Shown here piece after piece: positions 2,195-48,701 of a stretch of 64,000 nucleotides of DNA. The notes under the pieces were generated by a model. That model was not told the origin of the DNA and did not search any database. It saw only the letters and a program-made list of their open reading frames with translations. Source of the stretch: Bacillota bacterium (GTDB lineage Bacteria > Bacillota > Sulfobacillia > JBFMBV01). Both the position numbers and the translations under genes were made by a program. Numbering within the stretch: position 1 is the first letter of the stretch; each line of letters starts with the position of its first letter. Location: contig JBFMBV010000002.1 in NCBI GenBank assembly GCA_040755005.1, positions 13,761 through 77,760 on the forward strand, in the 5' to 3' direction.

Positions 2195-2485
2195 GTGGCG
2201 AAGGAGACGTGGCGTCGGCGCTGGCAGCGCAAGGTGGCTCAGGCCCTCGAGCTGCCGACCGACGTTGCCCTGGACGTCACCCGGGTGGAAATCGTGGGCA
2301 TGCTGCAGGTGAGCGTCACCAACCATCAGGGCTTGCTCCAGTTCACCCCGGAGGCGGTGGTCGTGGCTGTCGATCAGGGGTCCGTGACCATCGCCGGGGC
2401 GGAACTGGTCATCGCACTGATCGACGCTACCACCCTGATCATCACCGGACGCGTGCGCGGCCTCGCCTTCGCCGGGGAGGAATAG
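2195..2485 (+). CDS. yqfC: Sporulation protein YqfC (YabP family)
   Basis: About 96-aa protein with YabP-like beta-rich sequence (VEIVGMLQVSVTNHQGLLQFTPEAVVVAVDQGSVTIAGAELVI); GTG start; followed by yqfD as in Bacillus. Confidence 0.7.
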   Translation: MAKETWRRRWQRKVAQALELPTDVALDVTRVEIVGMLQVSVTNHQGLLQFTPEAVVVAVDQGSVTIAGAELVIALIDATTLIITGRVRGLAFAGEE

Positions 2486-14052: not shown

Positions 14053-16150
14053 CCTGATCCTGGAGATCGGCGTGGAGGAGTTCCCCGCCAAAGCCATGCC
14101 CTCCACCCTGGCGGCCCTGGCGGAGCGGGGGCGGCATGCCCTCAACGAGGCTAGGCTGGTCCCCGGCGGCGTGCGGGCCTTCGGCACCCCCCGGCGCTTG
14201 ACGCTGGTGGCGGGAGGGGTGCCCGACCGGCAGGCCCCCGTGACCGTCGAGGCCAGGGGCCCTGCGGTGAAGGCGGCCTTCGACGCCGGAGGGCAGCCCA
14301 CCAAAGCTGCCCTAGGCTTCGCATCGGGCCAGGGGGTGCCCGTGAGTTCCCTGGAGCGGCGGCCCACCCCCGCCGGCGAGTACCTGTACGCTGTCCGCAG
14401 CGACCCGGGCAGGCCTGCCCTTGACGTGCTGGCCGAGATCCTACCCCAGCTCATCGCCGGCCTGGAATTCCCCCGGGCCATGCGCTGGGGGACGGTGGAC
14501 TTCAAGTTCCTGCGGCCGATCCGCTGGCTCCTCTGCCTCCTGGGCAGCGAGGTGGTGCCCTGCGCCGTGGCCGGCGTGGCCAGCGGGCGGGAGACCTATG
14601 GCCACCGCGCACTGCACCCCGGCCGCGTGACCGTGCCCGAGGCCGGATCCTACCTGGCGCAGCTGGAGGGGGCCTGGGTCATGGCCGACCAGGACGCCCG
14701 CCGGCGGGCCATCCAGGCCCAGGTGGCCGCCCTGGCCGCCGAGGTGGGCGGGGTGGTGCCCGCGGATCCGGAGCTGCTGGAGGAGGTCACCCAGCTGGTC
14801 GAGTACCCGACCGCCCTGCGGGGCAAGTTTGACGCCCGCTTCCTCAAGCTGCCCGCCGACGTGCTCATCACCACCATGAAACACCACCAGCGCTACTTCC
14901 CCGTCCTCGGCGGCGACGGGCAGGTGTTGCCCCATTTCATCACCGTGCGCAACGGCGACGCCACCGGGCTGGAGACGGTCCGCCGGGGCAACGAGCATGT
15001 GCTCACCGCCCGCCTGGAAGACGCGGCCTTCTTCTACGGGGAAGACCTGAAGGTCCCCCTGGCCGACCGGGTGGAGACCCTCGCGGGCGTCACCTTCCTG
15101 GAGGCTCTGGGCACCATGGCCGACAAGAGCCGCCGCCTGGAACAGATCGCGGCGGGCCTTGCCCGCCTGGCGGCCGGGGTCCTGCCCGGCCTGGATTCGG
15201 CCTTGGCGGCTAGGGCCGGCAAGCTGGCCAAAGCCGACCTCACCACGGCGGTGGTCAAAGAGTTCCCCGAACTCCAGGGCTACATGGGCCGGGAGTACGC
15301 GCGCCTGTCCGGTGAGGCGCAGGCGGTCTGCCAGGCCATCGACGAGCACTACCGTCCGCGGGGTGCCGGGGCCGAGCTGCCCGGGACCCCCCTGGGGATA
15401 GTCCTGGCCGTGGCCGACAAGCTGGATACCGTGGCAGGCTGCCTGGGAGTGGGGCTTAACCCCACCGGTTCCCAGGACCCCTACGGGCTGCGGCGCCGGG
15501 CCGCCGGCGTGGTGGCGACCCTGCTCGCCCACGACCTGCCCCTCGACCTCAAGGCCGCCGTGGGCCTCGTCCAGGCGGCGTATCCCGAGGCGGTCCGGGA
15601 GCAGATCGCCGCCGCCCTGCCGGCCATCCTCGATTTCCTGCGCCAGCGCACCCGGGGCCTCCTGGCTGAGGCAGGACACAGGTACGATGTCATCGAAGCT
15701 GCCATGGGCACCGCCGGGGCCGACGACCCCGCCGACGCCCGGCGGCGTTGCCGCGCCCTGGAGCGCTTCCGCGCCGAGGAGGGGTTCGCCGACTTGGTGG
15801 TCGGGTTCACCAGGGCCTACAACATCGCCGGCAAGGCGGGAGAGGGCCCTGTGGACCCGGCCCGGTTCACCGAACCCGCCGAAGGCGCCCTGTACTCCGC
15901 CCTGGAGCGGGCCGGGCCGCCCTTGCGGGCCGCGCTCAGGGCCTTTGACTACGACCGCTTCTTCAGGGAGGCAGCGGCCTTGCGCGGTCCCATCGACACC
16001 TTCTTCACCGAGGTGTTCGTGATGGCCGAAGCTGAGGCGGTCCGCACCAACCGGCTGGCCCTGGTGCGGGACGTGGCCAGGCTGCTGGGCGCGGGCGCGG
16101 ACCTGAGCAAGCTGGCGGGCGACGAACGCGTGGCCGGGGAGGGGCGATAG
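14042..16150 (+). CDS. glyS: Glycine--tRNA ligase beta subunit
   Basis: About 700 aa; GlyS N-terminus ([14 protein letters not shown]); start overlaps the glyQ stop. Confidence 0.9.
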
Positions 16151-32315: not shown

Positions 32316-34237
32316 AGATCAAGTCGGTACGCATTCGTAACTTCCGCTCCGTGAGAGGGCAGCTCGTTGAGCTTGGCGACTACACATGCTTTGTGGGAGC
32401 TAATGGTTCAGGGAAGTCTAACGTGCTTCATGCTCTTAACGTTTTCTTCGGAACAGACACCCCTGGCCTCGACACCCACGAACTAGAAGAGGAGGATTTT
32501 CACAACAAGAACACAGGAGAGCCTGTAGAGATAACAGTTACGTTTTGTGACCTCTCGCCGCAAGCCAAAGAGGAACTAAAGCACTATGTGCGCCACGACC
32601 AACTGGTAGTCTCAGCTGAAGCGGGTTTTGACGCTGATACCCGCAAGGCTGCGGTCAAGCAGTATGGACGCAGGATGGTGATCAGGGAGTTTGCGCGCTT
32701 CTTTGAGGCTGAGAAGAAGACAGGCACGAAGGTCTCGGAACTCAAGGAGATATATGCGGACATACAAAAGAGATACTCACAACTGCCTGTTACAGGAACA
32801 AGGGAAGCCATGATCACGGCGCTTCGGTCATATGAGGAGAGTCACCAGGAGGAGTGTGAGGAGCTTCCGAGCAGCGACCAGTTCTATGGAGTAGCCAAAG
32901 GAACAAACCACCTCGAGAAGTACATCCAATGGGTCTATCTCCCAGCAGTCAAAGACGCATCGAGCGAACAGGCTGAAGCCAAAACCACGGCCCTCGGAAA
33001 GCTCTTGGCACGCACCGTTCGATCCAAGGTCAACTTCAAGGAGTCGATTGACGCTATCCGTGGAGAAACACGAGAAAAGTACGAAAAGCTTCTGGTCGAT
33101 AGTCAGGAGGAGCTGGCAGAAGTATCTCAAGCTCTAAGAGATCGCTTTGTGCTGTGGGCACACCAGGACGCGACTCTCCGGCTGGAATGGCAACAGGATC
33201 CTGAGAAGGCAGTACGTGTGGACGAACCATTCGCTCAAGCCATTCTCGGTGAGGCAGGCTTTGAGGGGGAACTCACCCGTTTCGGACACGGACTTCAACG
33301 GTCCTTTCTCCTGGCGCTTCTGCAAGAACTCTCCGGTAGTAACATCGAGGCGGGTCCGCGGCTGATTCTCGCGTGTGAGGAACCTGAGCTTTACCAGCAC
33401 CCCCCTCAGGCAAGGCACCTATACAACGTGCTGCTGAGACTGAGCGAACAGAACTCTCAGATTCTTATTGCGACCCATAGCCCCTACTTCGTGTCCGGTG
33501 AAGGCTTTGAGAGTGTACGAATGGTTCGCAAGTCTAACGGGGCGTCTTCGATCACGAGGGCGACACATGACGAAGTATCGAAGAGAATCGCGAAGGTTCG
33601 AGGAGAGCAGCCTATAAGGGCCAGCGGCCAACTGGCCAAGATCCATCAGGCGCTCCAGCCGGGACTTAGCGAGATGTTCTTCGCCTCCCGAGTCATATTT
33701 GTTGAAGGTCTTGAAGACATTGCCTATATAACAACATACTTACATCTCCTAGGCTTGTGGGACGAGTACAGGAGGCTCGGTTGCCACTTGATCTCGACTG
33801 GTGGGAAGAACGAAGTGCTTCTGTCCTTGGCGGCTGTGAAGTGCCTCCAGATCCCGGCTTTCGTTGTCTTCGATTCAGACGATGACAAACCGGACAAGAA
33901 CGGCAGCAAGCAGAAACATCGAAAGGACAACTCTGCAATCCTAAGTCTATGTGACGTTGACAGTCTGCAAGTGTCTCCGTCCGATACATTCTGGGGAGAC
34001 TCCGCGGTCATGTGGTCCTCTGATATTGGGCAGGTGGTTGCGCAGGAGATTGGAGCCGAGGACTGGGACAGGTATCGCTCTGAGGCTGACGCGAAGTATG
34101 GGCACGTAGGGAACCTCCGCAAGAACATGCTACACATCGCATCGAGCCTGCAAATAGCTTGGGAAGCTGGGAAAGAGTCGGACTCGCTAAGGAAGGTCTG
34201 CAACAAGATCATGGAGTTTGCTCAGAAGAATGGATAG
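32312..34237 (+). CDS. OLD-family ATP-dependent nuclease (N-terminal ABC-type ATPase + C-terminal Toprim)
   Basis: Walker A GANGSGKSN. Toprim motifs (IFVEGLEDIAYI ... FVVFDSDDD). Noticeably AT-richer than its neighbours. ATG 32312 overlaps the helicase stop; RBS GGAAGGAGG. Confidence 0.8.
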   Translation: MKIKSVRIRNFRSVRGQLVELGDYTCFVGANGSGKSNVLHALNVFFGTDTPGLDTHELEEEDFHNKNTGEPVEITVTFCDLSPQAKEELKHYVRHDQLVVSAEAGFDADTRKAAVKQYGRRMVIREFARFFEAEKKTGTKVSELKEIYADIQKRYSQLPVTGTREAMITALRSYEESHQEECEELPSSDQFYGVAKGTNHLEKYIQWVYLPAVKDASSEQAEAKTTALGKLLARTVRSKVNFKESIDAIRGETREKYEKLLVDSQEELAEVSQALRDRFVLWAHQDATLRLEWQQDPEKAVRVDEPFAQAILGEAGFEGELTRFGHGLQRSFLLALLQELSGSNIEAGPRLILACEEPELYQHPPQARHLYNVLLRLSEQNSQILIATHSPYFVSGEGFESVRMVRKSNGASSITRATHDEVSKRIAKVRGEQPIRASGQLAKIHQALQPGLSEMFFASRVIFVEGLEDIAYITTYLHLLGLWDEYRRLGCHLISTGGKNEVLLSLAAVKCLQIPAFVVFDSDDDKPDKNGSKQKHRKDNSAILSLCDVDSLQVSPSDTFWGDSAVMWSSDIGQVVAQEIGAEDWDRYRSEADAKYGHVGNLRKNMLHIASSLQIAWEAGKESDSLRKVCNKIMEFAQKNG

Positions 34238-37166
34238 CAGCAGCACTATCGGTTGGTGTCCGCGTTTGATCGAGGTGGCACTCCCCATCCGTGAAATCTC
34301 GGCAGAGAGCGTGCGGGACAAATCGCTGCGGCACGGCCATATCTCCACGCTTCACCTCTGGTGGGCGCGTCGACCGCTGGCTGCGTCACGAGCGGTTGTG
34401 TTCGCGTCGCTCGTGCCCGATCCCGACGACCCGCGTTGTCCGGCCGACTTCAGGGCAGCGGTGGAGCGTCATCTCAAGACGCACGTGCCGGCGGAACTGA
34501 GATACTACCTTCGCGGCCGCCACAGTCACCGTGATGAGGACCCGTACCGGCCCTACGATGGCATGCCGGACACGCTGCGGAACCGCCTCCTCATGTTCAT
34601 CGCCAAGTGGTCGCCGGAGTCCCTGACGTTTGAGGCCGGCAAGCGGAAGAACGCGCCCGTGCCGAAAGAGCTCCTGGACGACCGCTCCCTCGTGAAATGG
34701 GAGACCTCCGATCCTGAGAACGCCCAAGGCCAGGAGATCCTCCGCATCGCCCGCCAGCTTGTGAAGGCCGCCCACAGGGGCGACGTCCCGAGGGTGCTCG
34801 ATCCCTTTGCCGGCGGCGGGGCGATTCCGCTGGAGGCCGGGAGGCTCGGCTGTCAGGCCATTGCCAACGACTACAACCCGGTCGCGTATCTCATCCTTAG
34901 GGCGACCTGCGAGTTTCCGCAGAGGTACGGTAAGCCAGGCAAGAGGACGGTGGTCGTGGAGGAGTTTGGCAAGAAGGCCGAACGCGAAATCCAGGTTCAA
35001 AACGTCCTCGTCCACGACTTCGCACAGTGGGCGAACTGGATTCTCGAGCGGGCTCGCCAGAGGATTGGGCATCTGTATCCTCCCGGCATGGACGGCAGGC
35101 CGGTTGTGGGCTACCTCTGGGCCCGCACTGCGCCGTGCTCGAACCCCACCTGCCGTGGCGAGATTCCCCTGTTACGGAGCCTTCTGGTCTGCAACAAGAA
35201 GGGGAAGCAAGTCGCGCTGACGATGGATGTGGACAGCAAGCGGAAGACGGTTCGATTCGGGATCGCGGAAGGCAACGCCATCAGGATGACTGACGGCACC
35301 ATGCAGAGTCGCGGAAACGTTTTGTGCCCGTACTGCGGACAGGTGACCCCTGTCGCCGACCTACGGACCGCTGGACGCGCGGGCCGCATGAGCGAGCAGA
35401 TGGTATGTGTCGTGGTGGAAGGAAAGGGTGGAAAGGACTACCGGGAGGTGGAGTACACAGACCTCACGGGGATTGCCTGCGCAGCGAAGATCGAGGTTGA
35501 GTGTCCCGGGGAGAGAATTCCTGAGAACCAGTGGAATGTGAAGACCTGGCTGTATGGAATGAAGACCTGGGGTTCCCTCTTCAACCCCCGCCAGCTCGTG
35601 GCCATGCAGACGTTTGTCTCCTGTCTCCACGAGGCGCTAGGAGGGATGAAGAGAGAGATCGCCGACGACGAGTACCGGAAGGCGGTTGGAGTCTGTCTGG
35701 GGCTTTGGCTGAACCGGATTGCCCAGCGAAGTTCGAATGTAGGAATTTGGGACACAACCCGAGAGACCTTTGCTCATCCCTTTGGCCGCCAGGCTATCCC
35801 TATGACGTGGGACTATCCCGAGGCGAACCCTTTTTCAGAGACAACAGGGGGTGCGGAAGGCGGACTGGACTGGATGAAGCGGGTGATCCTGCATGAGTCA
35901 GGGAATTCCCTACCTGCCTACGTGACACGCAGTGATGGCGCGGCCCTTCCCTTCAGGGAAGCATCTTGCGACTTGGTCGTCACCGATCCACCCTATTTTG
36001 ACGCCATCGCTTACGGTGACCTCTCCGATTACTTCTACGTTTGGCTCAAGCGCGGCCTTGGCGATGTCATCCCTGAGGCCCTGATCACGCCGCTCACGCC
36101 CAAGGCTGATGAGGCGACTGCACTCAAGCATCGTCATTCCGGCGACGGAGAGAAGGCGGATGCTCACTTCAAGTCAAAGTTGGCGGCGGTACTAGCGGAG
36201 GCACACCGGATCTTAAGGCCTGATGGCATCGTCTCGATCATGTTTGCACACCAGTCCACAGAGGCGTGGACGGCCCTGGTTTCGGCGATCTTCGAGGCTG
36301 GGTTGACGGTGCACGCGACGTGGCCGATTGACACGGAGCTCACTACGGCCTTGAAGGCCAGCATGTCGGCTCTGTCGTCGTCGGTAACCGTTACCTGCCG
36401 TCCGCGCGCTGTAGCAGGTGCTATATCCTCCAAGGCGGTCCGCAGTGAGATCGAGGAGGTAGTGGGCCGTTCCGTAAAGCGCTTCTGGTCCTACGGCTTT
36501 CGCGGCGCAGACCTCATCGTTGCGTGCTATGGACCCGCTGTGGGGGTCTTTGGGAAATACGAGCGAGTGGAGAAGGCAGATGGCACCCCTGTCGGCATCC
36601 CCGAACTCCTGGTGCTTGCCAAGCAGGCCGCCCGTGACGCGATCGCCGGGGATTTCCGCGGAGACAACTTCTCAACCCTCTACTACGTCTGGGCGAACCT
36701 CTACGGGGCGGCGGAGCAGGCTTGGGATGACGCCCGGCTGGTCGTGCAGATCGGAGGAGACGAGGACAACGCCATGGAGGTTGCCCGCGGGCATGGGATC
36801 TTTGTGGTGGACGGTCCGAAATGCCGCCTTGCGCTCCTAGAGGACCGCGCCAATCGCCGAGGACTTGGCATGGATCAGAACCCGCCACACATTGACGCGC
36901 TACATCGCAGCATGCTCCTCTGGAAGAAGGAAAAGCGTAAGGATCTAGTCGAGTATCTCCGTGAGCGCGACCTCTTGGAGGATGGCCCGTTCTGGAAGCT
37001 GGCGCAGGCCCTGTTCGAGGTCCTTCCCCGCGATCTGGAGGACTGGAAGCTGGTCAGCGCTTTGCTCGGCGAGCGCCAGACTTTGCGTACGGAGGGCAAG
37101 CGTAGCGCGTACAGGGATGAGCAACAGGAGCTGTCCTTCGACGAGGGAGGCGGTGAGCGAACATGA
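34230..37166 (+). CDS. DUF1156-type DNA methyltransferase (N6-adenine/N4-cytosine class, DPPY motif)
   Basis: DUF1156-like N-terminus (RLIEVALPIREISAESVRDKSLRHGHISTLHLWWARRP). SAM motif I VLDPFAGGGAIPLEA. Catalytic motif IV DLVVTDPPY. ATG 34230 overlaps the OLD stop (ATGGATAG). Confidence 0.75.
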   Translation: MDSSSTIGWCPRLIEVALPIREISAESVRDKSLRHGHISTLHLWWARRPLAASRAVVFASLVPDPDDPRCPADFRAAVERHLKTHVPAELRYYLRGRHSHRDEDPYRPYDGMPDTLRNRLLMFIAKWSPESLTFEAGKRKNAPVPKELLDDRSLVKWETSDPENAQGQEILRIARQLVKAAHRGDVPRVLDPFAGGGAIPLEAGRLGCQAIANDYNPVAYLILRATCEFPQRYGKPGKRTVVVEEFGKKAEREIQVQNVLVHDFAQWANWILERARQRIGHLYPPGMDGRPVVGYLWARTAPCSNPTCRGEIPLLRSLLVCNKKGKQVALTMDVDSKRKTVRFGIAEGNAIRMTDGTMQSRGNVLCPYCGQVTPVADLRTAGRAGRMSEQMVCVVVEGKGGKDYREVEYTDLTGIACAAKIEVECPGERIPENQWNVKTWLYGMKTWGSLFNPRQLVAMQTFVSCLHEALGGMKREIADDEYRKAVGVCLGLWLNRIAQRSSNVGIWDTTRETFAHPFGRQAIPMTWDYPEANPFSETTGGAEGGLDWMKRVILHESGNSLPAYVTRSDGAALPFREASCDLVVTDPPYFDAIAYGDLSDYFYVWLKRGLGDVIPEALITPLTPKADEATALKHRHSGDGEKADAHFKSKLAAVLAEAHRILRPDGIVSIMFAHQSTEAWTALVSAIFEAGLTVHATWPIDTELTTALKASMSALSSSVTVTCRPRAVAGAISSKAVRSEIEEVVGRSVKRFWSYGFRGADLIVACYGPAVGVFGKYERVEKADGTPVGIPELLVLAKQAARDAIAGDFRGDNFSTLYYVWANLYGAAEQAWDDARLVVQIGGDEDNAMEVARGHGIFVVDGPKCRLALLEDRANRRGLGMDQNPPHIDALHRSMLLWKKEKRKDLVEYLRERDLLEDGPFWKLAQALFEVLPRDLEDWKLVSALLGERQTLRTEGKRSAYRDEQQELSFDEGGGERT

Positions 37167-40000
37167 GTGACACTCTCAAACCCTGGTATGCAGTTGCGAC
37201 ACCTCACGAGGACATCCGCGAAGGACGGCTCGCAGAGGCCATCTTTGCGGCAAACGTCTGGGCGGTCGTCCAGGGTACGGCGCCCGAGATCTACCTCGAC
37301 CCTGAGGAGTTTTTCCGTAAGACCTACCTCACCACCGGACTAACCACGGTGCTGAACCGCGTTGCGGGCGCGCTCCGACGCAACGGCGAGGTTGGAGACC
37401 GCATCATCAGCCTCCAGACAGCCTTCGGCGGTGGGAAGACGCACACGCTGGTGGCCCTGTGGCATCTAGCGAAGTATGCCGACCGCTTGGCGGGCTCGCC
37501 TCACTCAGATGCCCTTCGGAGAGCCATCGGCGGCCGATTCCCGGAGAAGGTGAAGGGCGTCGCCGTCTTCACCAACCAGACCTGCGATGCGACCCAGGGA
37601 CGTAGGGTCGCAGATGGCGTTCACCTGCGCACGTTGTGGGGAGAGTTAGCCTACCAGCTCGGCGGGAAGGAGCTCTACGAACGCGTCCGTGCCAATGACG
37701 AAAGCCAGCGCGTGCCTCAAGGGCTCTTCTTCGAGATCCTGCAGGCCGCCGCACCCTGCCTGATCTTGCTGGACGAGCTTGCCGACTACTGCGTTGGCGC
37801 GGCGGCAGTGCCGGTAGGTGACACGAGCCTGGCAGACCAGACCGTGTCCTTCATCCAGCAGCTGACCGAGTCCGTCCAGCAGGTGCCGGGCGTAGTGGTG
37901 GTCGCCACCCTGCCGGCGAGCAAGCACGAGGTCGCCCAAAGCGAGAAGGGCCAGGAGGCCTTCGTGACACTGGAGAAGCGCTTCCAGCGTCTCGGAGCCG
38001 ACGTCAAGCCGGTGGCGGATGTGGAAATCTACGAGGTTGTCCGGGCCCGCCTCTTCGAATCCATCGCACCGGACACTGCTCCGGACTATCCTAAGAAGGT
38101 TGCCCAGGCGTACCAGAGTATGTACGCGGCGCACTCGGGTGAGGTACCCCCCGAGGCCGCCAAAAACACGTACCGCGAGCAGCTCGAGCGCGCCTATCCG
38201 TTCCATCCCCTGCTCATCGACGCACTCTACACGCGCTGGGGCAGCCACCCCGATTTCCAACGGACGCGGGGTGTATTGCGCCTGCTGGCGAGCATCGTAG
38301 GCGACCTTTGGAAGCGCCGGCAGGGAAGCACCGAGACCCAACACCTGATTCAGCCGTGCCATGTCCGCTGGTCTGTCGATGCGCTGCAGGCTGCGCTCAC
38401 ACGACTCTGGGGACCCGCCTATCAATCCGTTGCTGCTGCCGACGTCATCGGGGAGCGGTCCAATGCCGGCATCTTCGACGAAGAACGTGGTGGCGACTAC
38501 CGAAGCGAGTCCATCGGCAAGGGGCTGGGGTCTGCGATCATCCTCGGCTCATTCGGCGGCCAAGGTGGCCGCAGCGGGTTCAGCGCTAGAGATCTGAAGC
38601 TGGCATGCTCCCGGCAGGGTTTAAACTGGAGTTACACGGACGGGGCTCTGCTGGAGCTGGAGAACCGCTGTTTCTACCTCCACACGGTGACGTCCGGAAG
38701 CCTCGGCAAGCGCTACTGGTACGGCACAAAACCGACCCTCAACAAGCTGGTCGTCCAGTACCGTCAGCAGAGCGCCAAGGAGGACTTCGGCGAGGAGATA
38801 CTGGAGGACCTCCGGGCTGATTCCCAGAAGAGCCCCATGGCTGGTGCGACGTGGCGGGTGGTCGTCAACCCCGCAGAAGACCTGCCAGAGCAGAAGTCTC
38901 TCACGCTACTGATCCTTCCGCCGTCCCTGGCCTGGGACGAGAACGGCGGGGCGAAGGACGTGGTCCAGGCACGCGTACAGGCGATCAGCACCAGGTGCGG
39001 CGGAAGGGACCGCCTGTATCGGAACACGCTCCTGTTTCTGGTTGGGACCACTCGCGGGCTCACTAAGCTGCGGCAGGCCTATCGGGAGCAGGCAGCGCTG
39101 GAAGGCGTGCGTGCGGACTACTGGGAACAGCTCGATGAGGAGCAGCGCGAGGAGCTCAAAAAACGACTGGATGCGGCGCGCAAAGCCGCCCTGGAAGCGC
39201 TGGGCCCCGCCTACACCGTTGCCCTCCGAGTGCGCGGGCAAGAAGTAGAGCCATGCGTGCTCTCGGACGCGCGGCGAACCTTCCCAGAACACCTTGGTTA
39301 TGTGTGGACGACGCTCGTCGAGGACGAGGAGTGGATTCTCCGTCGTGTTGGGTCGGTGACGCTGGAGAGCACGGGCCTCATCCCGAAGGAAGGCGGCCTT
39401 CGCTTGAAGGATGCCGTCGAGGCCTTCCTGCGCTTCACGGACAAGCCCATGGTCGCGACCAAGGAGGCGGTGACCACCGGGCTCGCCCAGGCTTGCCTGG
39501 ACGGACTGGTTGGCATCGGCAGAGGTGGAAGCCTGTCGACACTCCTGACCCGCCATTGCAGGCAGTCGGTGTCGCTCGACCCCAACGAAGACGGTGTGTG
39601 GATCATCCCTCCGTTCACACCGGAGCCGACGATGGTTCCTGGGGCTGAGGGAACCGCCGGAGTTGGGATCAATGTCGGGGGACCGGGCGGCCCAGGTGGA
39701 ACAGGCTCCAGCACGGGCAGTGGGGAAGGTGCGGCAACGACCGCCACGGGTAAGCCGGGAATCGAGGGCACGGTGCGTCGGTTCGTCGTCCGCGGCGAGG
39801 TTCCCGTGGAGAGCTGGGGTGAGCTCTTTCGCTGCTTCGTTGGGCCTGCTGCACGGATGAACCTGAAGAAGTTGCAGCTCGGCGTGCAGTTCGAGATGGT
39901 GCTCCCTGAGGAGCGGGTGCTGAGCGAGACCGATCACACGCTCAAGACGATCAAAGAGGCCGCCCGCCAGCTGGGGCTCACCTTCGAGGTGGGGGAGTAA
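37163..40000 (+). CDS. DUF499-family ATPase (BrxC/PglY-like) of a BREX-related, methylation-associated defence system
   Basis: Walker A LQTAFGGGKTHTL and Walker B LILLDELADY in a DUF499-like context; about 945 aa; ATGA overlap with the methyltransferase stop; RBS GAGGGAGG. Confidence 0.75.
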   Translation: MSDTLKPWYAVATPHEDIREGRLAEAIFAANVWAVVQGTAPEIYLDPEEFFRKTYLTTGLTTVLNRVAGALRRNGEVGDRIISLQTAFGGGKTHTLVALWHLAKYADRLAGSPHSDALRRAIGGRFPEKVKGVAVFTNQTCDATQGRRVADGVHLRTLWGELAYQLGGKELYERVRANDESQRVPQGLFFEILQAAAPCLILLDELADYCVGAAAVPVGDTSLADQTVSFIQQLTESVQQVPGVVVVATLPASKHEVAQSEKGQEAFVTLEKRFQRLGADVKPVADVEIYEVVRARLFESIAPDTAPDYPKKVAQAYQSMYAAHSGEVPPEAAKNTYREQLERAYPFHPLLIDALYTRWGSHPDFQRTRGVLRLLASIVGDLWKRRQGSTETQHLIQPCHVRWSVDALQAALTRLWGPAYQSVAAADVIGERSNAGIFDEERGGDYRSESIGKGLGSAIILGSFGGQGGRSGFSARDLKLACSRQGLNWSYTDGALLELENRCFYLHTVTSGSLGKRYWYGTKPTLNKLVVQYRQQSAKEDFGEEILEDLRADSQKSPMAGATWRVVVNPAEDLPEQKSLTLLILPPSLAWDENGGAKDVVQARVQAISTRCGGRDRLYRNTLLFLVGTTRGLTKLRQAYREQAALEGVRADYWEQLDEEQREELKKRLDAARKAALEALGPAYTVALRVRGQEVEPCVLSDARRTFPEHLGYVWTTLVEDEEWILRRVGSVTLESTGLIPKEGGLRLKDAVEAFLRFTDKPMVATKEAVTTGLAQACLDGLVGIGRGGSLSTLLTRHCRQSVSLDPNEDGVWIIPPFTPEPTMVPGAEGTAGVGINVGGPGGPGGTGSSTGSGEGAATTATGKPGIEGTVRRFVVRGEVPVESWGELFRCFVGPAARMNLKKLQLGVQFEMVLPEERVLSETDHTLKTIKEAARQLGLTFEVGE

Positions 40001-40252: not shown

Positions 40253-43200
40253 ATGGCGCAGCAAACCAGACCACGCGTCACCCAGCGGGCGTACTCACTC
40301 CGGTTGCGGGGGACCACACCGGGCGACACATCATGGCGGGATGCGCTCTGGCAGACCCATGAGGCTGTCAACAAAGGTGCCAAGGCATTCGGTGATTGGC
40401 TGCTTACTTTGCGTGGCGGCCTGGATCACACACTTGCGGCCGCCAAGACCGACGGAGAACGCCGCCAACGACGCATTCTCTTGGCTCTGTCATGGCTGTC
40501 GGTGGAATCAAAACGCGGAGCTCCGGATGACTTCATTATCAGGCACGGCGGACACGACCGAGGTAAAGCTGTAACCGGGGCACTTGAGGAAATCCTAGTG
40601 CGTCGGGGTGTGGACCAGAGTGAGCTAGCTGAGTGGAAGCGCGACTGCTCCCCGTCCTTGCACGCAGCTATTCGCGAGGATGCCGTTTGGGTGAATCGGA
40701 GCAGGGCATTTGATGGTGCGGTCAACTCAATAGGTTGCTCACTCACGCGCGAGGAGGCGTGGGACATGCTGGAACGCTTCTTCGGAAGCCGTGAAGCCTA
40801 TCTGGCTCCAGCGAAAGGGTCCGAAGATGAGTCTTCCGACACAGGGCAAGAGGAGAAAGCAAAGGACCTCGTCCAGAAGGCAGGGCAATGGCTCAGCAGC
40901 CGGTTCGGCACCGGCAAAGGAGCGGACTTCTCCCGCATGGCCGAGGTCTATCAAGAGATCGCGAGTTGGGCTGGCGCACACTCACCGGACAAGCCGGGCA
41001 CGCATGCCATTGCCAGCCTTGCGACCGCCCTCAGCGAGTTCACTCCTGCATCAGACAACCTACAGGGCGTGCTTGGTCTGATCAGCGGTCCAGGATACAA
41101 GAGCGCGACGCGCAATCTTCTCACTCAGATCGCCGCCAAGACCACCGTTACTCAACAAGATTTTACGAAACTGAACGCAACGGCGACCGCGGATAAAGGA
41201 AAATGCATGACGAACACCGGATCGAAGGGGCAACGAGCATACTCCGACACCATCCTCAAGGACGTGGAGTCGGCTTGTGGGTTCACCTACCTGCAGGACG
41301 GAGGGCCTGCTAGACACCCGGAGTTTGCAGTCATGCTTGACCACGCAGCTCGCCGCGTTTCCTTGGCCCACACGTGGATCAAGCGGGCTGAGGCGGAACG
41401 TCGCCGGTTTGAGGAAGAAGCGAAGCGTATGGCCAATGTCCCATCTCCTGCTAGGGAGTGGCTGGACTCGTTCTGCTCGGAACGTTCGGGAACGTCAGGT
41501 GCTTTGGAACCCTACCGTATCCGGCGGCGGGCGGTGGACGGGTGGAAGGAAGTGGTCACCGCATGGAGTAGGAGTTCATGTAGTACCGGCGCCGACCGGA
41601 TCGCCGCCGCTCGGGCGTTGCAGGACGCTCCAGAGATCGACAAGTTCGGCGACATTCAGCTATTCGAGGCCCTCGCTGAAGACGACGCCGTGTGCGTTTG
41701 GCACAAGGATGGCGATGCCGCGAAACCTCCCGACCTTCAGCCGCTGCTTGACTACGTTTTTGGCGCTGAAGCGGAGTTCAAGAAACGGCACTTCAAGGTG
41801 CCGGCGTACCGCCACCCCGATGCGCTTTTGCATCCGATCTTCTGCGATTTTGGGAAGTCCCGCTGGGACATCTGCTTCGACGTCCAGAAGAACGTGCAAA
41901 CGCCCTTTCCGCGGGCGCTTTGCCTGACGCTTTGGACCGGGAGCGGGATGGTAGCAGTTCGGTTGTGCTGGCAGTCCAAGAGGCTTGCATGTGATTTGGC
42001 CCTTGGAAACAACGCGAGGAATGCAGGTGCTTCCGCGGTCACCCGCGCGGACAGATTGGGACGAGCTGCCTCAAATGTGACAAAGAATGATGAGGTAAAT
42101 ATCGCGGGGCTCTTTGAACAAGCAGACTGGAATGGCCGGTTGCAGGCTCCAAGACAGCAGTTGGAAGCCATCGCCGCACGTGTGGCCAAACACGGCTGGG
42201 ATGATAAGGCCGTACAGATGCAATATCGTATCCAATGGTTGGTGTCTTTCTCTGCCAAGCTTCAACCGCAGGGCCCGTGGCTCACCTATGGAATGGCAAA
42301 TAACCTGAAGCTAGACCAGAAGAACGGTGATATTGTTATCGCGCCGCCTAACACCAAGAATGAATGGCGTGGGCTGGCTTACCCGTTCTGGCATCCTGAT
42401 AATCAGGAAGGCCGTAAGGGATTGGCCAAGCACTGCCTCTCCCGTTTGCCCGGTCTTCGCGTGCTTTCTGTCGACCTTGGTCACCGTTATGCTGCGGCGT
42501 GCGCGGTGTGGGAAGCGGTAAACACCGAGCAGATCAAGGTAGCGTGCCAGGCCGCCGGACATGATGAGCCGAAGGAGAGCGATCTCTACCTGCATCTCAA
42601 GAGAAAGGCGACGAAGCAGAAGAGGGGCGAAAACGTCGAGGTCGAGAGAACCACTATCTATCGCCGCATCGGCGCGGACACATTGCCGGACGGTACGCAG
42701 CATCCCGCCTCGTGGGCGCGCCTGGACCGCCAGTTCCTCATCAGGCTCCAGGGCGAGGAAAAGGGAGCTCGCGCGGCATTAAACGAGGAGATATGGGCGG
42801 TTCATCAACTGGAGGCTGAACTGGGCAGGACCGTGCCAATTATCGACCGACTGGTCAGATGGGGTCAGTCCGGCAAGCAAGAAACGAGACTCGATGCGCT
42901 ACGTAATCTGGGGTGGGCACCGGCAAACGAGGTTCAAGGCTCTGACGAGATGGACGAAGGCGAAGTCCGTAAGCCATCGCGCTCCGTTGACGAACTGATG
43001 TCCTCCGCCGTCCGGACCATGCGCCTCGCGCTCAAGCGCCATGGCGACCGGGCGCGAATCGCCTTTGCCATGACGGCAGCCTATAAACCTTTGCCCGGCG
43101 ACCGCAGATACTACTTCACCGAGGCGAGAGATGCTTCGGCGAACGAAGATGCTAATGCGCGGAACGGTACGCATATCGAGTCTATCCAAGATGCTCTGCT

Positions 43201-44659
43201 CCTCTGGTATGGATTGGCATCCTCCCGTGGATGGCGGGACGACGCGGCAAAGCGACTGTGGGATGACCATATCACCGGATTGTCCGGATACAAGGCTCCG
43301 GAAGAAATCGGTGAGGATGTCTCCGGTGTAGCGCGCAAGACGAAGCAAAGAGAGAATCGAGAGAAACTCCATCATGTGGCGGAGGCCCTGGTCAAGGATG
43401 CAAGGCTTCGAGAGGCTCTCCACGACGCCTGGAAGAAGCGATGGGAAGCGGACGACGAGCGGTGCAAAAGACAGCTTCGCTGGTTCAAGGACTGGATTCT
43501 TCCCCGCGGCAAAGCCGCGAGTGATCCGACCATCCGCAAGGTCGGCGGACTCTCCCTTCGCCGGCTTGCCACGCTGACCGAGTTTCGCCGCAAAGTTCAA
43601 GTGGGATTTTTCACCCGCCTTCAACCGGATGGCATAAGGGCTGAAGCCAAAGAGCAGTTCGGGCAGAGCGCCTTGGACGCTCTGGAACATCTACGCGAGC
43701 AGCGCGTCAAGCAACTTGCCAGTCGCATAGCCGAGGCGGCGCTCGGTATCGGACGGATGAGGCGGCCCATGGGAGGCAAGGACCCCAAACGGCCAAGTGT
43801 CCGTGTAGACGCGCCTTGCCACGCCATCGTCATCGAAGACCTTACCCACTACCGGCCGGAGGAAACTCGTACCCGGCGGGAAAACCGCCAACTCATGACG
43901 TGGTCGTCCTCGAAGGTCAAGACGTACCTGGCCGAAGCCTGCCAACTCCACGGCCTGCACCTCCGCGAAGTCTCGGCGAGCTACACGTCGCGCCAGGACT
44001 CCCGCACAGGAGCTCCCGGCATCCGCTGTCAGGATGTGCCTGTCAATGAGTTCATGCGGTTGCCGTTCTGGAGGAAGCAGGTTAAGCAAGCGGAGGCGAA
44101 GCAGGCCGAGAACAAGGGCGACGCGCGTGAGCGGCTCCTCTGTGACCTGAACTCAATGTGGAAAGACAAGGCTGTAGCCGATTGGCAGAAGGCCGGGGTT
44201 ATCCGTGTTCCACTAAGAGGAGGCGAGATATTTGTTTCGGCCAGCCGGGACTCCCAGGGAGTGAAGAGCCTTCAAGCCGACCTGAACGCCGCTGCCAACA
44301 TCGGCCTGCGGGGGCTTACTGACCCGGACTGGCCGGGAAAGTGGTGGTACGTGCCATGCGAGCCGGCCAGCTTCAAGCCCACACCTGATAAGGTAAAAGG
44401 TAGTGCCGCGATCAACCTGGACATGCCACTCAAAGACGCATCGGTCGGCAGCGGGGACGTAACCAGGAAGAAAGCCGGGAAGGCCAAGTCACAGTCCAAA
44501 GAGGTTGTTAACCTCTGGCGAGATGTCTCATCACGGGTGATTTCTGCGGAGGGCGTGGCGTGGGAAGTCTATTCCGCCTATCAGAATCAAGTGCAGGCGC
44601 GAGTGGTCGATATCCTGCACAGATCCGCGTGCTCAAACAATGACCGGGAGAAACAATAG
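40253..44659 (+). CDS. cas12b: Cas12b (C2c1) type V-B effector nuclease, unusually long (1468 aa)
   Basis: N-terminus alignable by eye to AacCas12b (RAYSLRLRG..SWRDALWQTHEAVNKGAKAFGDWLLTLRGG). RuvC-I VLSVDLGHRYAAACAV; RuvC-II IVIEDLTHY...YTSRQDSRTGAPGIRC; RuvC-III QADLNAAANIGLRGL. Followed by cas4/1, cas2 and an array. Confidence 0.85.
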   Translation: MAQQTRPRVTQRAYSLRLRGTTPGDTSWRDALWQTHEAVNKGAKAFGDWLLTLRGGLDHTLAAAKTDGERRQRRILLALSWLSVESKRGAPDDFIIRHGGHDRGKAVTGALEEILVRRGVDQSELAEWKRDCSPSLHAAIREDAVWVNRSRAFDGAVNSIGCSLTREEAWDMLERFFGSREAYLAPAKGSEDESSDTGQEEKAKDLVQKAGQWLSSRFGTGKGADFSRMAEVYQEIASWAGAHSPDKPGTHAIASLATALSEFTPASDNLQGVLGLISGPGYKSATRNLLTQIAAKTTVTQQDFTKLNATATADKGKCMTNTGSKGQRAYSDTILKDVESACGFTYLQDGGPARHPEFAVMLDHAARRVSLAHTWIKRAEAERRRFEEEAKRMANVPSPAREWLDSFCSERSGTSGALEPYRIRRRAVDGWKEVVTAWSRSSCSTGADRIAAARALQDAPEIDKFGDIQLFEALAEDDAVCVWHKDGDAAKPPDLQPLLDYVFGAEAEFKKRHFKVPAYRHPDALLHPIFCDFGKSRWDICFDVQKNVQTPFPRALCLTLWTGSGMVAVRLCWQSKRLACDLALGNNARNAGASAVTRADRLGRAASNVTKNDEVNIAGLFEQADWNGRLQAPRQQLEAIAARVAKHGWDDKAVQMQYRIQWLVSFSAKLQPQGPWLTYGMANNLKLDQKNGDIVIAPPNTKNEWRGLAYPFWHPDNQEGRKGLAKHCLSRLPGLRVLSVDLGHRYAAACAVWEAVNTEQIKVACQAAGHDEPKESDLYLHLKRKATKQKRGENVEVERTTIYRRIGADTLPDGTQHPASWARLDRQFLIRLQGEEKGARAALNEEIWAVHQLEAELGRTVPIIDRLVRWGQSGKQETRLDALRNLGWAPANEVQGSDEMDEGEVRKPSRSVDELMSSAVRTMRLALKRHGDRARIAFAMTAAYKPLPGDRRYYFTEARDASANEDANARNGTHIESIQDALLLWYGLASSRGWRDDAAKRLWDDHITGLSGYKAPEEIGEDVSGVARKTKQRENREKLHHVAEALVKDARLREALHDAWKKRWEADDERCKRQLRWFKDWILPRGKAASDPTIRKVGGLSLRRLATLTEFRRKVQVGFFTRLQPDGIRAEAKEQFGQSALDALEHLREQRVKQLASRIAEAALGIGRMRRPMGGKDPKRPSVRVDAPCHAIVIEDLTHYRPEETRTRRENRQLMTWSSSKVKTYLAEACQLHGLHLREVSASYTSRQDSRTGAPGIRCQDVPVNEFMRLPFWRKQVKQAEAKQAENKGDARERLLCDLNSMWKDKAVADWQKAGVIRVPLRGGEIFVSASRDSQGVKSLQADLNAAANIGLRGLTDPDWPGKWWYVPCEPASFKPTPDKVKGSAAINLDMPLKDASVGSGDVTRKKAGKAKSQSKEVVNLWRDVSSRVISAEGVAWEVYSAYQNQVQARVVDILHRSACSNNDREKQ

Positions 44660-44689: not shown

Positions 44690-46408
44690 ATGGATGAGAG
44701 CCTTTGGCCAGCCCGGAATGTGGCCGAACATGCATATTGCCCGCGGCTCTTCTATTACATGCAGGTCGAGGGTGTCTTTGTTCCGAGCAGCGACACGGAA
44801 AAGGGGGTCGCTGTCCATCGACGCGTGGACAAGCCCAGCGCAGCTCAGGGGAAGGCGGATGAAAGCGAGGCGGACCCCGATCGGCCGAAAACAGTTCGGA
44901 GTCTGGCCTTAACAAGTGAGTCGCTCGGTCTAACCGCGACGTTGGACTTGGCGGAGATCTCGGGTCAAGTCGCAGTGCCCGTCGAATATCGCAAAGGTCG
45001 TCCCAAGCGCGTTTCATTGGATCCGCCTCCCGACGATCCGGGCGAAGCAGAGGAAGCTCCACTTTCGCACACAGAAGCGTGGCCCACGGACCGTGTTCAA
45101 GTGGGCCTCCAAGCCATTCTTCTTGAGGGTGCCGGGTATACGGTTAGTGAAGCGGTCATCTACTACGCCGAGGAGAAACATCGTTTCAGGATTCCCGTCG
45201 ATGATGCTCTCAAGGTCGAAGCGCTGAGGACCTTGGAAAGCGCGAAACAATGCGCCGAAGGCTCACGGCCTCTCCCGCTGCTCAATGATCCGCGCTGTCC
45301 GCGGTGTTCGCTTCAGCCGATATGCTTGCCGGACGAGGTCAATCACCAGCGGGCACAATCTTCAAGTGACGAACGTACACCGAGAAAGATCTGGCCGCCG
45401 CGCGATGACGGTATTCATGTAGTAGCCCAGCAGGATGGCGTGAAGGTCGGCGTTCGTGGCATGGAGTTGAAGGTCACGGACAAAAGTGGCGCAGTAGTCA
45501 AAACCATGCCGCTCGCCAACCTCGAAAGCCTTTCCCTGCTTGGTTCGGTGCAAATCACCACCCAGGCGATTCGTGCCCTTGCCGACATGAACACTCCTAT
45601 CGCGTTTCTTTCGCCGGCGGGACGGCTAGTGGCCATGATCGATCCGCTCGATTCAGTCAGCGCCGAGGTTCGAAGGTCACAGGTTCGTAAACTCGACCGC
45701 ATGGAGGTCTGCCTCGAACTTGCACGTGCCCTCGTGTCGGCCAAGATCATGAACCAGAGAACACTCCTCCTCCGCAATCACAGCTCGTTGCCACCTGGCG
45801 TAGCTGCTGATCTGGTGAAGGAGGCTCAGAATGCGGCGCAGTCGGATTCGGTAGATTCGGTGCGCGGGCATGAGGGTCAGGCGGCGGCCATCTACTTCGG
45901 GCATTTTGCTGGAATGTTCAAGGGCCCTCTATCGTTGGAGTTTGATGCCAATGGCAGGAAACGCAGACCTCCGCCCGACCCCATCAACTCCTGTCTGTCG
46001 CTTGCGTACTCGATGTTGACTCACGAGTGCGTGGCGGCGTTACGCCTCGCAAGACTGGAGCCATCTATCGGCGGATTTCATGTATCGAAGCCAGGGCGTC
46101 CCGCGCTCGCGCTCGATCTCATGGAACCGTTTCGACCCCTGATCGCGGATTCCGTCGCGATCACATGCTTTAACCGGGGTGAGTTGACCGAGGGACATTT
46201 TCTTCGCACTGCCTCCGGCTGTTCGCTCACCGACGCTGGCAGAAGGGGCTTCTTCCATGCTCTTGGCAGAAGAATGGATACTGAGGTCACCCATCCGGTC
46301 TTCGAGTATCGTTTGAGCTACCGGCGCATGATCGTCTTGCACGCGCGGATGATTGCGGCCTGGCTCACGGGAGATATTCCTTCTCTGGCGTTCCTGAACA
46401 CACGCTGA
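44690..46408 (+). CDS. cas4-cas1: Cas4-Cas1 fusion protein
   Basis: Cas4 part: EHAYCPRLFYY plus C-terminal Cys cluster (CPRCSLQPIC). Cas1 part: conserved blocks (LSLLGSVQITTQAIRAL; RRPPPDPINSCLSLAYSML; DLMEPFRPLIADS). Confidence 0.9.
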   Translation: MDESLWPARNVAEHAYCPRLFYYMQVEGVFVPSSDTEKGVAVHRRVDKPSAAQGKADESEADPDRPKTVRSLALTSESLGLTATLDLAEISGQVAVPVEYRKGRPKRVSLDPPPDDPGEAEEAPLSHTEAWPTDRVQVGLQAILLEGAGYTVSEAVIYYAEEKHRFRIPVDDALKVEALRTLESAKQCAEGSRPLPLLNDPRCPRCSLQPICLPDEVNHQRAQSSSDERTPRKIWPPRDDGIHVVAQQDGVKVGVRGMELKVTDKSGAVVKTMPLANLESLSLLGSVQITTQAIRALADMNTPIAFLSPAGRLVAMIDPLDSVSAEVRRSQVRKLDRMEVCLELARALVSAKIMNQRTLLLRNHSSLPPGVAADLVKEAQNAAQSDSVDSVRGHEGQAAAIYFGHFAGMFKGPLSLEFDANGRKRRPPPDPINSCLSLAYSMLTHECVAALRLARLEPSIGGFHVSKPGRPALALDLMEPFRPLIADSVAITCFNRGELTEGHFLRTASGCSLTDAGRRGFFHALGRRMDTEVTHPVFEYRLSYRRMIVLHARMIAAWLTGDIPSLAFLNTR

Positions 46409-46424
46409 CTTGCCGGAGGCTATT

Positions 46425-46715
46425 ATGCGTCGATGCTACCTGGTTTGTTACGACATCAGAGAACCGAAACGATTGCGGCGTGTCCACAAGGTGCTTAAAG
46501 GGTACGGCGAAGCCTGGCAGTTTTCCGTCTTCTTTTGTGTGCTCAAAGACATTGACCGCGTGCGGTTGCAGACCGATCTCGAGGAGCAGATGAACCAGAA
46601 GGTAGATCAGGCCATGATTCTGGACCTTGGCCCTAACGAGAAGGAGGCCCGCGAAGCGGCCACGGTTATAGGCCAACCCCTTCCCGGCCAGGACAGCGGG
46701 ATCGTTGTTGTTTGA
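46425..46715 (+). CDS. cas2: Cas2
   Basis: About 97 aa, MRRCYLVCYDI.. N-terminus typical of Cas2; the track begins the ORF at TTG 46410. Confidence 0.85.
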   Translation: MRRCYLVCYDIREPKRLRRVHKVLKGYGEAWQFSVFFCVLKDIDRVRLQTDLEEQMNQKVDQAMILDLGPNEKEAREAATVIGQPLPGQDSGIVVV

Positions 46716-46811
46716 CTTTCGGGGTGCCAGAAGGTATGATTTCCCTGAGGCCTCTACAGGAGGCGAGAGTACCACGGCACGTGTCTTCCCCTTCAATGGG
46801 CTTGGCACCGT

Positions 46812-46836
46812 GGAGTCGATCAGTTTTGTTCCGACG
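46812..46836 (+). ncRNA. Candidate tracrRNA anti-repeat within the cas2-array leader (transcript bounds unknown)
   Basis: GGAGTCGATCAGTTTTGTTCCGACG matches the reverse complement of the repeat (CCGTCGATCAGATCCGTTTCGATG) at 17/25 positions, including a perfect 9-mer GTCGATCAG. Followed by a T-run. Adjacent CAATGGGCTTGGCACCGTGG loosely resembles the Aac tracrRNA segment CCAATGGCCACTTTCCAGGTGGCA. Confidence 0.3.
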
Positions 46837-47033
46837 AAGGAGCGGACTCCTCGACAGCAGCCGCGAGCGCGGAGGTGGTGCAGGGGGGGCCAGGGGGTGC
46901 TCGAACCTGTTGGGTTTCCTGAGGCTATGAACAGCGCTCAGACCACCTGCGTAGGCTCATTGTCGGCAGCACTCGGTCACGCTCGCATGGCAGCCAGCAA
47001 ACGCTGTGTTAGCAAGGGTTTGCAGGGACGGCG

Positions 47034-48701
47034 GCCACCGACATCGAAACGGATCTGATCGACGGACACACCGACCGCCGCGGTGCCGGCTCTACGGACC
47101 TAGGCCACCGACATCGAAACGGATCTGATCGACGGACACCTGCAGGGGGAGAGTTCACGATGCAGTTCCTCCGCCACCGACATCGAAACGGATCTGATCG
47201 ACGGACACAGGGCCAGGTCGCCCAGTACATCAGACGTTTTACGCCACCGACATCGAAACGGATCTGATCGACGGACACGCCGCGCAATTCCACCAGGTAC
47301 ACCTCTTCCAACACGCCACCGACATCGAAACGGATCTGATCGACGGACACGTTGCGAGCGGCCGAATGAAAACCATGTCGTCCACGCCACCGACATCGAA
47401 ACGGATCTGATCGACGGACACCGTCACCCCCCCTACACCGCGAATGTCACATCCCAGCCACCGACATCGAAACGGATCTGATCGACGGACACGAGTAGGA
47501 CCCCCCGGGGCGAGACGTAGGTTAGGCCACCGACATCGAAACGGATCTGATCGACGGACACCTCCCCCAACAGTCTGCAAAAAAAACGCGCTGTGCACGG
47601 CCACCGACATCGAAACGGATCTGATCGACGGACACTATCAAGCTCGCCATAGGTGACTGTGAGACACTAGCCACCGACATCGAAACGGATCTGATCGACG
47701 GACACCGCAGGAGGCGGGCTGCGCGCAGGCTGTTCGCGGCAGCCACCGACATCGAAACGGATCTGATCGACGGACACTGGTATGTGATACCATTAGAAGC
47801 GCAGCATACAAAGCCACCGACATCGAAACGGATCTGATCGACGGACACTCACGCCCCTGTCCCGCGCAGGTCACACCCATAGGCCACCGACATCGAAACG
47901 GATCTGATCGACGGACACCCACGCCCCAGGCCAAGCGCGCGGCGATCCTCAGGCCACCGACATCGAAACGGATCTGATCGACGGACACCGCAAACCCTCC
48001 TCCACCAACTCCAGGCTTCTTGGCCACCGCCATCGAAACGGATCTGATCGACGGACACTTACTGCGGTGGTCAGGGCCGCGAGACTGCCCACTGCCACCG
48101 ACATCGAAACGGATCTGATCGACGGACACTCTTATGGTCTCGTCAGCAGGTACGTCCCAAGCCGCCACCGACATCGAAACGGATCTGATCGACGGACACA
48201 TGCAGTGGTGCTTGAGGGCCAGCTTGACCTGTTGCCACCGACATCGAAACGGATCTGATCGACGGACACTTGATTGTGACCTCAAGGTAGCGCGGGCCCT
48301 CCTCCGGCCACCGACATCGAAAAGGGATCTGATCGACGGACACATCTTTACCGACCCGCCCTACGGGCACAACAGCAAGCCACCGACATCGAAACGGATC
48401 TGATCGACGGACACAGCTACTCAGGCAACGCCTTCCGCGGCCACCTGCGCGCCACCGACATCGAAACGGATCTGATCGACGGACACACACGGGGTGTGTT
48501 CAGGTGGGCTGGTGTAGTCGGCGCCACCGACATCGAAACGGATCTGATCGACGGACACTTGACTGTGACCTCAAGGTAGCGCGGGCCCTCCTCCGGCCAC
48601 CGACATCGAAACGGATCTGATCGACGGACACCATCGGTGCCAGCACGAAGCGGCGTACGTCTACTGCCACCGACATCGAAACGGATCTGATCGACGGACA
48701 C
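47034..48701 (+). CRISPR. CRISPR array, 24 repeats of 36 nt (GCCACCGACATCGAAACGGATCTGATCGACGGACAC), 23 spacers of 34-37 nt
   Basis: Regular ~70-nt periodicity read directly. Repeat ends in ...GACAC like the V-B repeat 3' handle, implying + strand transcription with the leader at the cas2 side. Repeats 15 (48033, A>C) and 19 (48307, 37 nt) are variant. Confidence 0.95.

Follow-up and report, generated by a model that had tools for sequence, protein, structure and literature searches.

The window, by which we mean the whole stretch of 64,000 nt that was analysed, contains a complete type V-B CRISPR-Cas locus. It consists of cas12b, cas4/cas1, cas2 and a 24-repeat array, and every part is located on the + strand:

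40253-44659, + strand: cas12b, encoding 1468 aa, with a match to NCBIfam NF033949 (Cas12b) of 1178.5 bits and a match to the Pfam C2c1 RuvC-like domain
44690-46408, + strand: cas4/cas1 fusion gene, matching NF049935 (Cas4g/Cas1g) with 632 bits versus a cut-off of 560
46410-46715, + strand: cas2, with matches to TIGR01573 and PF09827
46716-47033, + strand: intergenic region of 318 nt between cas2 and the array
47034-48701, + strand: CRISPR array with 24 copies of the 36-nt repeat GCCACCGACATCGAAACGGATCTGATCGACGGACAC, in the order repeat-then-spacer

The repeat-then-spacer orientation follows from the sgRNA of the related enzyme ChCas12b, in which ...GGACAC stands directly 5' of the guide. Within the array, the repeat-spacer units 48234-48325 and 48523-48614 exhibit 98% identity, pointing to a spacer duplicated within the array, and variant repeats start at 48023 (GCCACCGCCATCG...) and occur near 48305. 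Just upstream of cas12b, at 34218-40000, two large genes match the anti-phage-associated DUF1156 (methyltransferase-like) and DUF499, both with scores far under the curated full-length cut-offs. A defence island is the probable setting of the CRISPR locus.

An earlier note on this DNA had proposed a candidate tracrRNA in the intergenic region on the basis of an imperfect anti-repeat. The + strand at 46812-46836 reads exactly GGAGTCGATCAGTTTTGTTCCGACG as claimed there, and both the 17 Watson-Crick matches to the repeat among 25 positions and the perfect 9-bp core, GTCGATCAG (46815-46823) versus CTGATCGAC, could be reproduced. Two further G:U pairs are formed at positions 46826 and 46827. In 1000 dinucleotide-preserving shuffles of the 318-nt leader region, 3.1% hold a 9-mer complementary to the repeat and 5.6% attain the observed duplex energy. 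With the array excluded, 18 such 9-mer matches occur in the window, the core GTCGATCAG being found again at 2369 and 12067, and if the whole window is ranked by ungapped complementarity to the repeat, the site at 46812-46836 takes about the 17th place. A duplex energy with the repeat of -31.5 kcal/mol was calculated for the candidate site (RNAduplex), which is about 3 sd below the window mean of -17.7 kcal/mol (sd 4.3). The strongest repeat duplex in the window, with -39.2 kcal/mol, is that of 2361-2405 (+), which includes the copy of GTCGATCAG at 2369. Among the three intergenic regions flanking the cas locus the candidate is the best site by duplex energy: the leader reaches -32.3 (+) and -26.5 (-) kcal/mol, the region upstream of cas12b -27.6 and -21.7 kcal/mol, and the region downstream of the array -25.1 and -25.9 kcal/mol. 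The earlier statement that no comparable match exists upstream of cas12b holds for the covariance model described below, which has no match there, whereas in duplex energy the margin is small (-27.6 versus -31.5 to -32.3 kcal/mol). Taken by itself, the anti-repeat match is weak evidence and only marginally above chance. What gives it weight is where it lies and how it compares across loci, rather than the match as such.

A search for Cas12b homologs gave 595 proteins at E <= 1e-20, and among the 120 listed nearly all full-length proteins have 1400-1560 aa. The comparative set consists of 79 loci from species-representative genomes. Arrays with 36-nt repeats are found in 52 of these 79 loci, the 3' half of the repeat (...CUGAUCGACGGACAC) being conserved and the 5' half variable. 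Most loci share a conserved element 180-300 nt upstream of the array and on the strand of cas12b. Exactly the same 28-nt core, GTGTCTTCCCCTTCAATGGGCTTGGCAC, occurs in 10 loci, among them the window, and some of these encode a Cas12b that is only about 45% identical to the window protein. A covariance model, R1, was derived from the trimmed alignment of 39 related loci, including the ChCas12b locus (L013) and the window itself. In the window R1 gives a single match, 46747-46836 (+), with 100.9 bits and E = 3e-22. Over 1.28 Mb of related loci it gives 67 matches in 65 of the 79 loci at E <= 0.001, all but two of them on the cas12b strand and downstream of cas12b, and no chance matches were seen below E = 0.05 in the 79 loci. 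An Rfam cmscan of 46300-47200 at E <= 10 returned only the spurious lncRNA RMST_8 (20.9 bits versus a gathering score of 80); Rfam 15 has no family for this RNA. The element can be divided into the following parts:

46748-46836, + strand: putative tracrRNA, minimal extent by covariance model (R1 match)
46750-46764, + strand: stem 1, hairpin GCCUC-UACAG-GAGGC, equivalent to G(-91)..C(-77) of the ChCas12b sgRNA, where the element is described (PMC12204704)
46772-46777 with 46808-46813, + strand: stem 2, CCACGG with CCGUGG, enclosing the short anti-repeat and stem 3
46781-46785, + strand: short anti-repeat GUGUC, which pairs with the last 5 repeat nt, GACAC, beside the spacer and would form a pseudoknot
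46789-46800, + strand: stem 3, hairpin CCC-UUCAAU-GGG
46815-46836, + strand: long anti-repeat GUCGAUCAGUUUUGUUCCGACG, which pairs with repeat positions -7 to -28

All three stems are preserved by compensatory changes. The 5 pairs of stem 1 are 98.5% paired over 68 sequences, with compensatory changes in 5/5; for the 6 pairs of stem 2 the values are 92% and 6/6 (e.g. CCGAG/CUCGG and CUGCGG/CCGCAG), and for the 3 pairs of stem 3 they are 99.5% and 3/3. In the R1-based alignment 96.2% of the cells are paired and each of the 14 pairs shows double-sided changes (210 cells); this degree of pairing is attained by 0/500 shuffles, and slid controls are 35-59% paired. A MAFFT alignment, which is independent of the model, exhibits 93% paired cells and double changes in 14 of 18 pairs. 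In a further alignment, A2, a conserved promoter is followed by three stems in which the changes are compensatory, while the 3' part is variable.

The MFE fold of the single sequence also contains all three stems, and with z = -0.95 single-sequence folding is uninformative alone. It adds an internal helix, formed by 46782-46785 and 46804-46807, as a competitor of the short anti-repeat. This helix is invariant across loci and so gives no covariation signal. In locus L029 it would be disrupted, with the repeat pairing still maintained, and the cryo-EM description of ChCas12b assigns its bases to R:AR duplex 2 (PMC12204704). The long anti-repeat forms 17 Watson-Crick and 2 G:U pairs over 22 positions, with 3 mismatches, and its duplex at this locus (-28.6 kcal/mol) is weaker than the family mean of -33.4 kcal/mol. 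The first three bases of the 25-mer given in the earlier note are not paired with the repeat. G46812 and G46813 are part of stem 2, and A46814 is mismatched; it stands opposite repeat G(-6) as an A:G mismatch at a position that is paired in most related loci.

Both anti-repeats change together with the repeat of their own locus. For the long anti-repeat, the repeat sequence CUGAUCAAUG occurs with CAUUGAUCAG and GCGGUUCAGCG occurs with CGUUGAACCG. Cognate tracrRNA:repeat duplexes have a mean energy of -33.4 kcal/mol versus -21.9 kcal/mol for non-cognate combinations (permutation p <= 5e-5). In a register-fixed pair table 580 of 664 tracrRNA-repeat cells are paired, with several pair types per position, compared to a mean of 511 +/- 6.6 and a maximum of 539 when the repeats were permuted among loci (2000 permutations). 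The short anti-repeat is paired with the repeat end in 37/37 loci, and L029, the sole locus with a repeat ending in GACGC, has GCGUC at this place.

The closest known system is ChCas12b from Candidatus Hydrogenedentes, a protein of 1496 aa for which Li et al. (NAR 2025, PMC12204704) reported cryo-EM structures (PDB 9kln-9klq). Its sgRNA is composed of a 75-nt tracrRNA and a 16-nt repeat part. In stem 1, G(-91)-C(-87) is paired with G(-81)-C(-77), followed by the 7-nt L2 linker; stem 2 has 6 bp and stem 3 has 3 bp. R:AR duplex 2 is formed by G(-60)-C(-56) with G(-5)-C(-1), and R:AR duplex 1 begins with C(-27):G(-6) (PMC12204704). PMC12204704 cites Wei et al. (Sci Bull 2024) for the ability of this sgRNA to support genome editing in vivo.

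From the primers given in the Methods of PMC12204704 we reconstructed the sequence of the ChCas12b sgRNA, whose tracrRNA part is present exactly in L013, a Candidatus Hydrogenedentes MAG. Compared to this part, window positions 46750-46823 are identical in 61 of 74 nt (82%) without gaps, and the elements map one-to-one. Both RNAs have a 5-bp stem 1 whose loop is UACAG, a purine-rich linker of 7 nt (mostly A), a 6-bp stem 2, GUGUC paired with GACAC and a 3-bp stem 3 with a UUCAAU loop, after which the long anti-repeat follows. The short anti-repeat at 46781-46785 is the counterpart of R:AR duplex 2 and the long anti-repeat at 46815-46836 that of R:AR duplex 1. In the 28-nt core GUGUCUUCCCCUUCAAUGGGCUUGGCAC one base differs. 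Where stem 2 and the anti-repeat differ, compensating changes maintain the pairing: CCACGG/CCGUGG in the window stands against CUGCGG/CCGCAG in ChCas12b, and the anti-repeat GUCGAUCAG (46815-46823) with ...GAUCGAC... in the repeat stands against GUUGUUCAG with ...GAUCAAC.... At position -27 the window has A opposite G, where ChCas12b has a C:G pair. In contrast to ChCas12b, cas4/cas1 and cas2 are placed between cas12b and the tracrRNA in the window locus.

The proteins show a corresponding picture. The best solved structure for the window Cas12b is 9kln (ChCas12b, 1496 aa) with 1765 bits, the global identity being 57%. We compared ten ChCas12b residues named in PMC12204704, i.e. nine contacts to the sgRNA scaffold and the engineered D496A site, all ten of which could be verified in the reference protein. 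The window protein has the same residue in eight cases (R745, R1251, K788, F828, R826, Q876, R879 and D467) and a conservative change in two (K to R at 831 and S to T at 800). By these comparisons the 1468-aa protein is assigned to the long-Cas12b clade, that of ChCas12b, and the RNA element, as judged from its identity and its covarying structure, is an ortholog of the known and experimentally characterised ChCas12b tracrRNA. The earlier expectation of a tracrRNA of about 80-120 nt from 46.72-46.85 kb (+) with a 3'-terminal anti-repeat is in accordance with this assignment, since covariance model, ChCas12b identity and covariation agree. The second, short anti-repeat GUGUC (46781-46785) and a promoter at 46712-46740 go beyond what had been claimed.

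With regard to the short-Cas12b clade, the scaffold of AacCas12b/AapCas12b (PMC12649315, Table 1) has the same topology as the window element: it starts with a 5' hairpin whose loop is of the UAGAG type and continues with an A/U-rich linker, then comes a stem around a short anti-repeat and an inner hairpin, and a long anti-repeat forms the 3' end. The short anti-repeat GUGCC pairs with GGCAC, and the repeat ends in ..CAC beside the spacer, as in the window (PMC6546382). The resemblance of the upstream CAATGGGCTTGGCACCGTGG to the hairpin part of the Aac tracrRNA, put forward in the earlier note, is right on the level of topology, as this segment comprises stem 3, the linker and the 3' strand of stem 2 in the same order; there is no useful sequence similarity to Aac/Aap beyond short motifs. 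Compared to Aac/Aap, ChCas12b has 2 bp more in stem 1 and 3 and 2 bp fewer in stems 2 and 3 (PMC12204704), and the window has the lengths of ChCas12b. The Aac/Aap proteins match the window Cas12b over the RuvC region only, with about 90 bits.

In general, Cas12b guides combine a long repeat:anti-repeat stem with a short repeat:anti-repeat pseudoknot of 5-7 bp (PMC11246509), and the anti-repeat is 3'-terminal and discontinuous (PMC6546382). The window element fits this rule. Similar to type II (Cas9) systems, a trans-encoded RNA would pair imperfectly with the CRISPR repeat by an anti-repeat and be needed both for interference and for forming the guide. The type II anti-repeat is located at the 5' end, ahead of nexus and terminator, whereas that of the window is 3'-terminal and in two discontinuous parts; also unlike type II, the crRNA of the window is read repeat-then-spacer (PMC6546382). 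For V-B systems in general the tracrRNA is required for crRNA maturation and DNA interference, and a survey of tracrRNAs from 2018 omitted V-B for lack of diversity (PMC6546382).

In two relatives a second tracrRNA-like element was observed with R1 (about 57 bits), at 9468-9557 (-) in L046 and at 3940-4025 (-) in L054. It is oriented divergently from cas12b, 330-440 nt upstream of that gene. The flanks were read over 9330-9640 in L046 and 3800-4110 in L054. The element contains stems 1-3 and GUGUC, a short hairpin ending in the repeat 3' end (..GACAC) and then ATGTCGGGTT..., and thus has the appearance of a natural single-guide RNA. Over its first 8-10 bases the guide matches a GTTT-preceded site inside the promoter region of the element itself, which resembles the autorepression by tracr-L of Cas9. 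As no V-B mini-arrays are listed in PMC10120712, such a natural single-guide element may be undescribed. An element of this second type is not present in the window.

For transcription and for the region between the element and the array, two further features are relevant:

46712-46740, + strand: predicted sigma-70-type promoter with TTGACT (46712-46717), a 17-nt spacer and TATGAT (46735-46740), 10/12 consensus matches
46837-47033, + strand: CRISPR leader proper, with sequence-conserved blocks (MAFFT, 15 loci)

Transcription of the tracrRNA is predicted to start at about 46746-46748. TTGAC, about 17 nt and TAnAnT are conserved columns in alignment A2, and a promoter-like site is found within 60 nt upstream of the element in 32/66 loci versus 0.8% of random windows. 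In 30 of these 32 loci the -10 box ends 1-6 nt before the element, and L013 and L002 have the promoter directly upstream of it as in the window. The stop codon TGA of cas2 (46713-46715) lies inside the -35 box TTGACT, and a terminator-like hairpin is called at 46692-46709, inside the end of cas2.

The blocks conserved in the leader of the 15 loci include CCGCGAGCGCGGAGGTGGTG.AGGGGGGGCC.AGGGGGTGCTCGAAC at about 46863-46905, GCTCGCATGG at about 46982-46991 and, directly preceding the first repeat, the final ~25 nt. Covariation-supported RNA structure was found nowhere in the leader, the block 46837-46925 included. Possible roles of these blocks are integration or regulatory signals, or an unrecognised promoter. 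About 15-20 nt past the anti-repeat there is a conserved TTGACA-like box, which reads TCGACA in the window (46851-46856) and CTTTGACA in many loci. It lacks a conserved -10 partner and was for this reason not called a promoter; it might belong to the 3' region of the tracrRNA or represent a promoter element of an atypical kind.

In sum, 46748-46836 (+) is very probably the tracrRNA gene of this type V-B CRISPR-Cas locus, a reading that draws on homology, covariation and position. One alternative accepts the element as a tracrRNA and concerns its transcription. Instead of serving a separate small-RNA gene, the promoter at 46712-46740 might drive one transcript of tracrRNA, leader and pre-crRNA, in which the pairing takes place within the transcript or between copies and is followed by cutting, e.g. 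by RNase III in the repeat:anti-repeat duplex. Such a single transcript is conceivable because neither a terminator-like site on the + strand after the anti-repeat nor a sigma-70-like promoter in 46837-47033 was found by simple scans of the window, with the same outcome in L013 and L002, and because a promoter-like site between tracrRNA and array occurs in only 3/51 loci, compared to the 32/66 with such a site directly upstream of the tracrRNA. Furthermore, tracrRNA and array always share one strand, and the median distance between the tracrRNA and the first repeat is 209 nt. On the other hand, the scans are simple consensus matches, which miss weak or non-sigma-70 promoters and non-canonical terminators, and the conserved leader blocks could include an unrecognised promoter. 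The Aac tracrRNA, moreover, has been detected as a discrete small RNA. We therefore regard the long transcript as possible, yet rather unlikely. That tracrRNA and array form one transcription unit throughout the long-Cas12b clade, with the tracrRNA released from it or acting within it, is a tentative idea that we would not expect to hold. If it were true, the conserved leader blocks would act in that transcript or in spacer integration.

The remaining alternatives deny the element its role as a tracrRNA. The conserved block could be a leader signal on the DNA level, for spacer integration by Cas1-Cas2 or for a regulator, with only incidental complementarity to the repeat; it is, after all, located in the leader-side intergenic region, and the rest of the leader has conserved blocks without RNA covariation. 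DNA-binding sites, however, do not produce compensatory double changes in 14/14 stem pairs. The element is also found directly after cas12b where there is no room for cas1/cas2 before the array, as in L011 (end of cas12b at 14347, element at 14409-14496, start of the array at 14737), and the ortholog functions as the tracrRNA portion of an sgRNA and has been visualised by cryo-EM (PMC12204704). A signal of this kind is very improbable. Even less credible is a merely accidental complementarity with the real tracrRNA, if any, located elsewhere, i.e. at 2361-2405 (+) or upstream of cas12b. By the terms of the earlier note, a better anti-repeat at another place would speak against its candidate, and on energy 2361-2405 formally is one (-39.2 versus -31.5 kcal/mol), with the 9-mer core recurring there and at 12067. 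Yet this site is covered by overlapping ORFs of 156-265 aa, is 38 kb away from cas12b and lacks a tracrRNA scaffold, and we judge it to be a chance match in G+C-rich coding sequence. Upstream of cas12b, -27.6 kcal/mol is not accompanied by an R1 match; the window holds a single significant one, and the evidence from homology and covariation applies to 46747-46836 only.

With the element taken as the tracrRNA gene, the following course can be proposed. A sigma-70-type promoter of its own (46712-46740), overlapping the end of cas2, probably drives transcription of the tracrRNA, which would fold into the three stems at 46750-46764, 46772-46777 with 46808-46813, and 46789-46800. Its long anti-repeat (46815-46836) would pair with the middle and the 5' part of each pre-crRNA repeat, while the internal GUGUC (46781-46785) would pair with the repeat end GACAC beside the spacer, resulting in the pseudoknot. 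The paired RNA would then be processed and loaded in Cas12b so that the spacer follows GACAC, and the dual RNA bound by the 1468-aa Cas12b would guide DNA cleavage, as in ChCas12b.

No concept is changed by this result, as the need of V-B systems for such an RNA is known and, for a close relative, both functional tests and structures are already available. Of modest practical use is the comparative set, with 67 tracrRNAs (66 loci and the window) and a specific covariance model for an RNA without a family in Rfam; it also provides covariation in the three stems and in the two repeat:anti-repeat duplexes. For the uncharacterised 1468-aa Cas12b a single-guide design is at hand, in which 46750-46824 would be fused to UCUGAUCGACGGACAC (the last 16 nt of the repeat) and a guide. 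Finally, the proposed tracrRNA would complete the parts list of this V-B locus.
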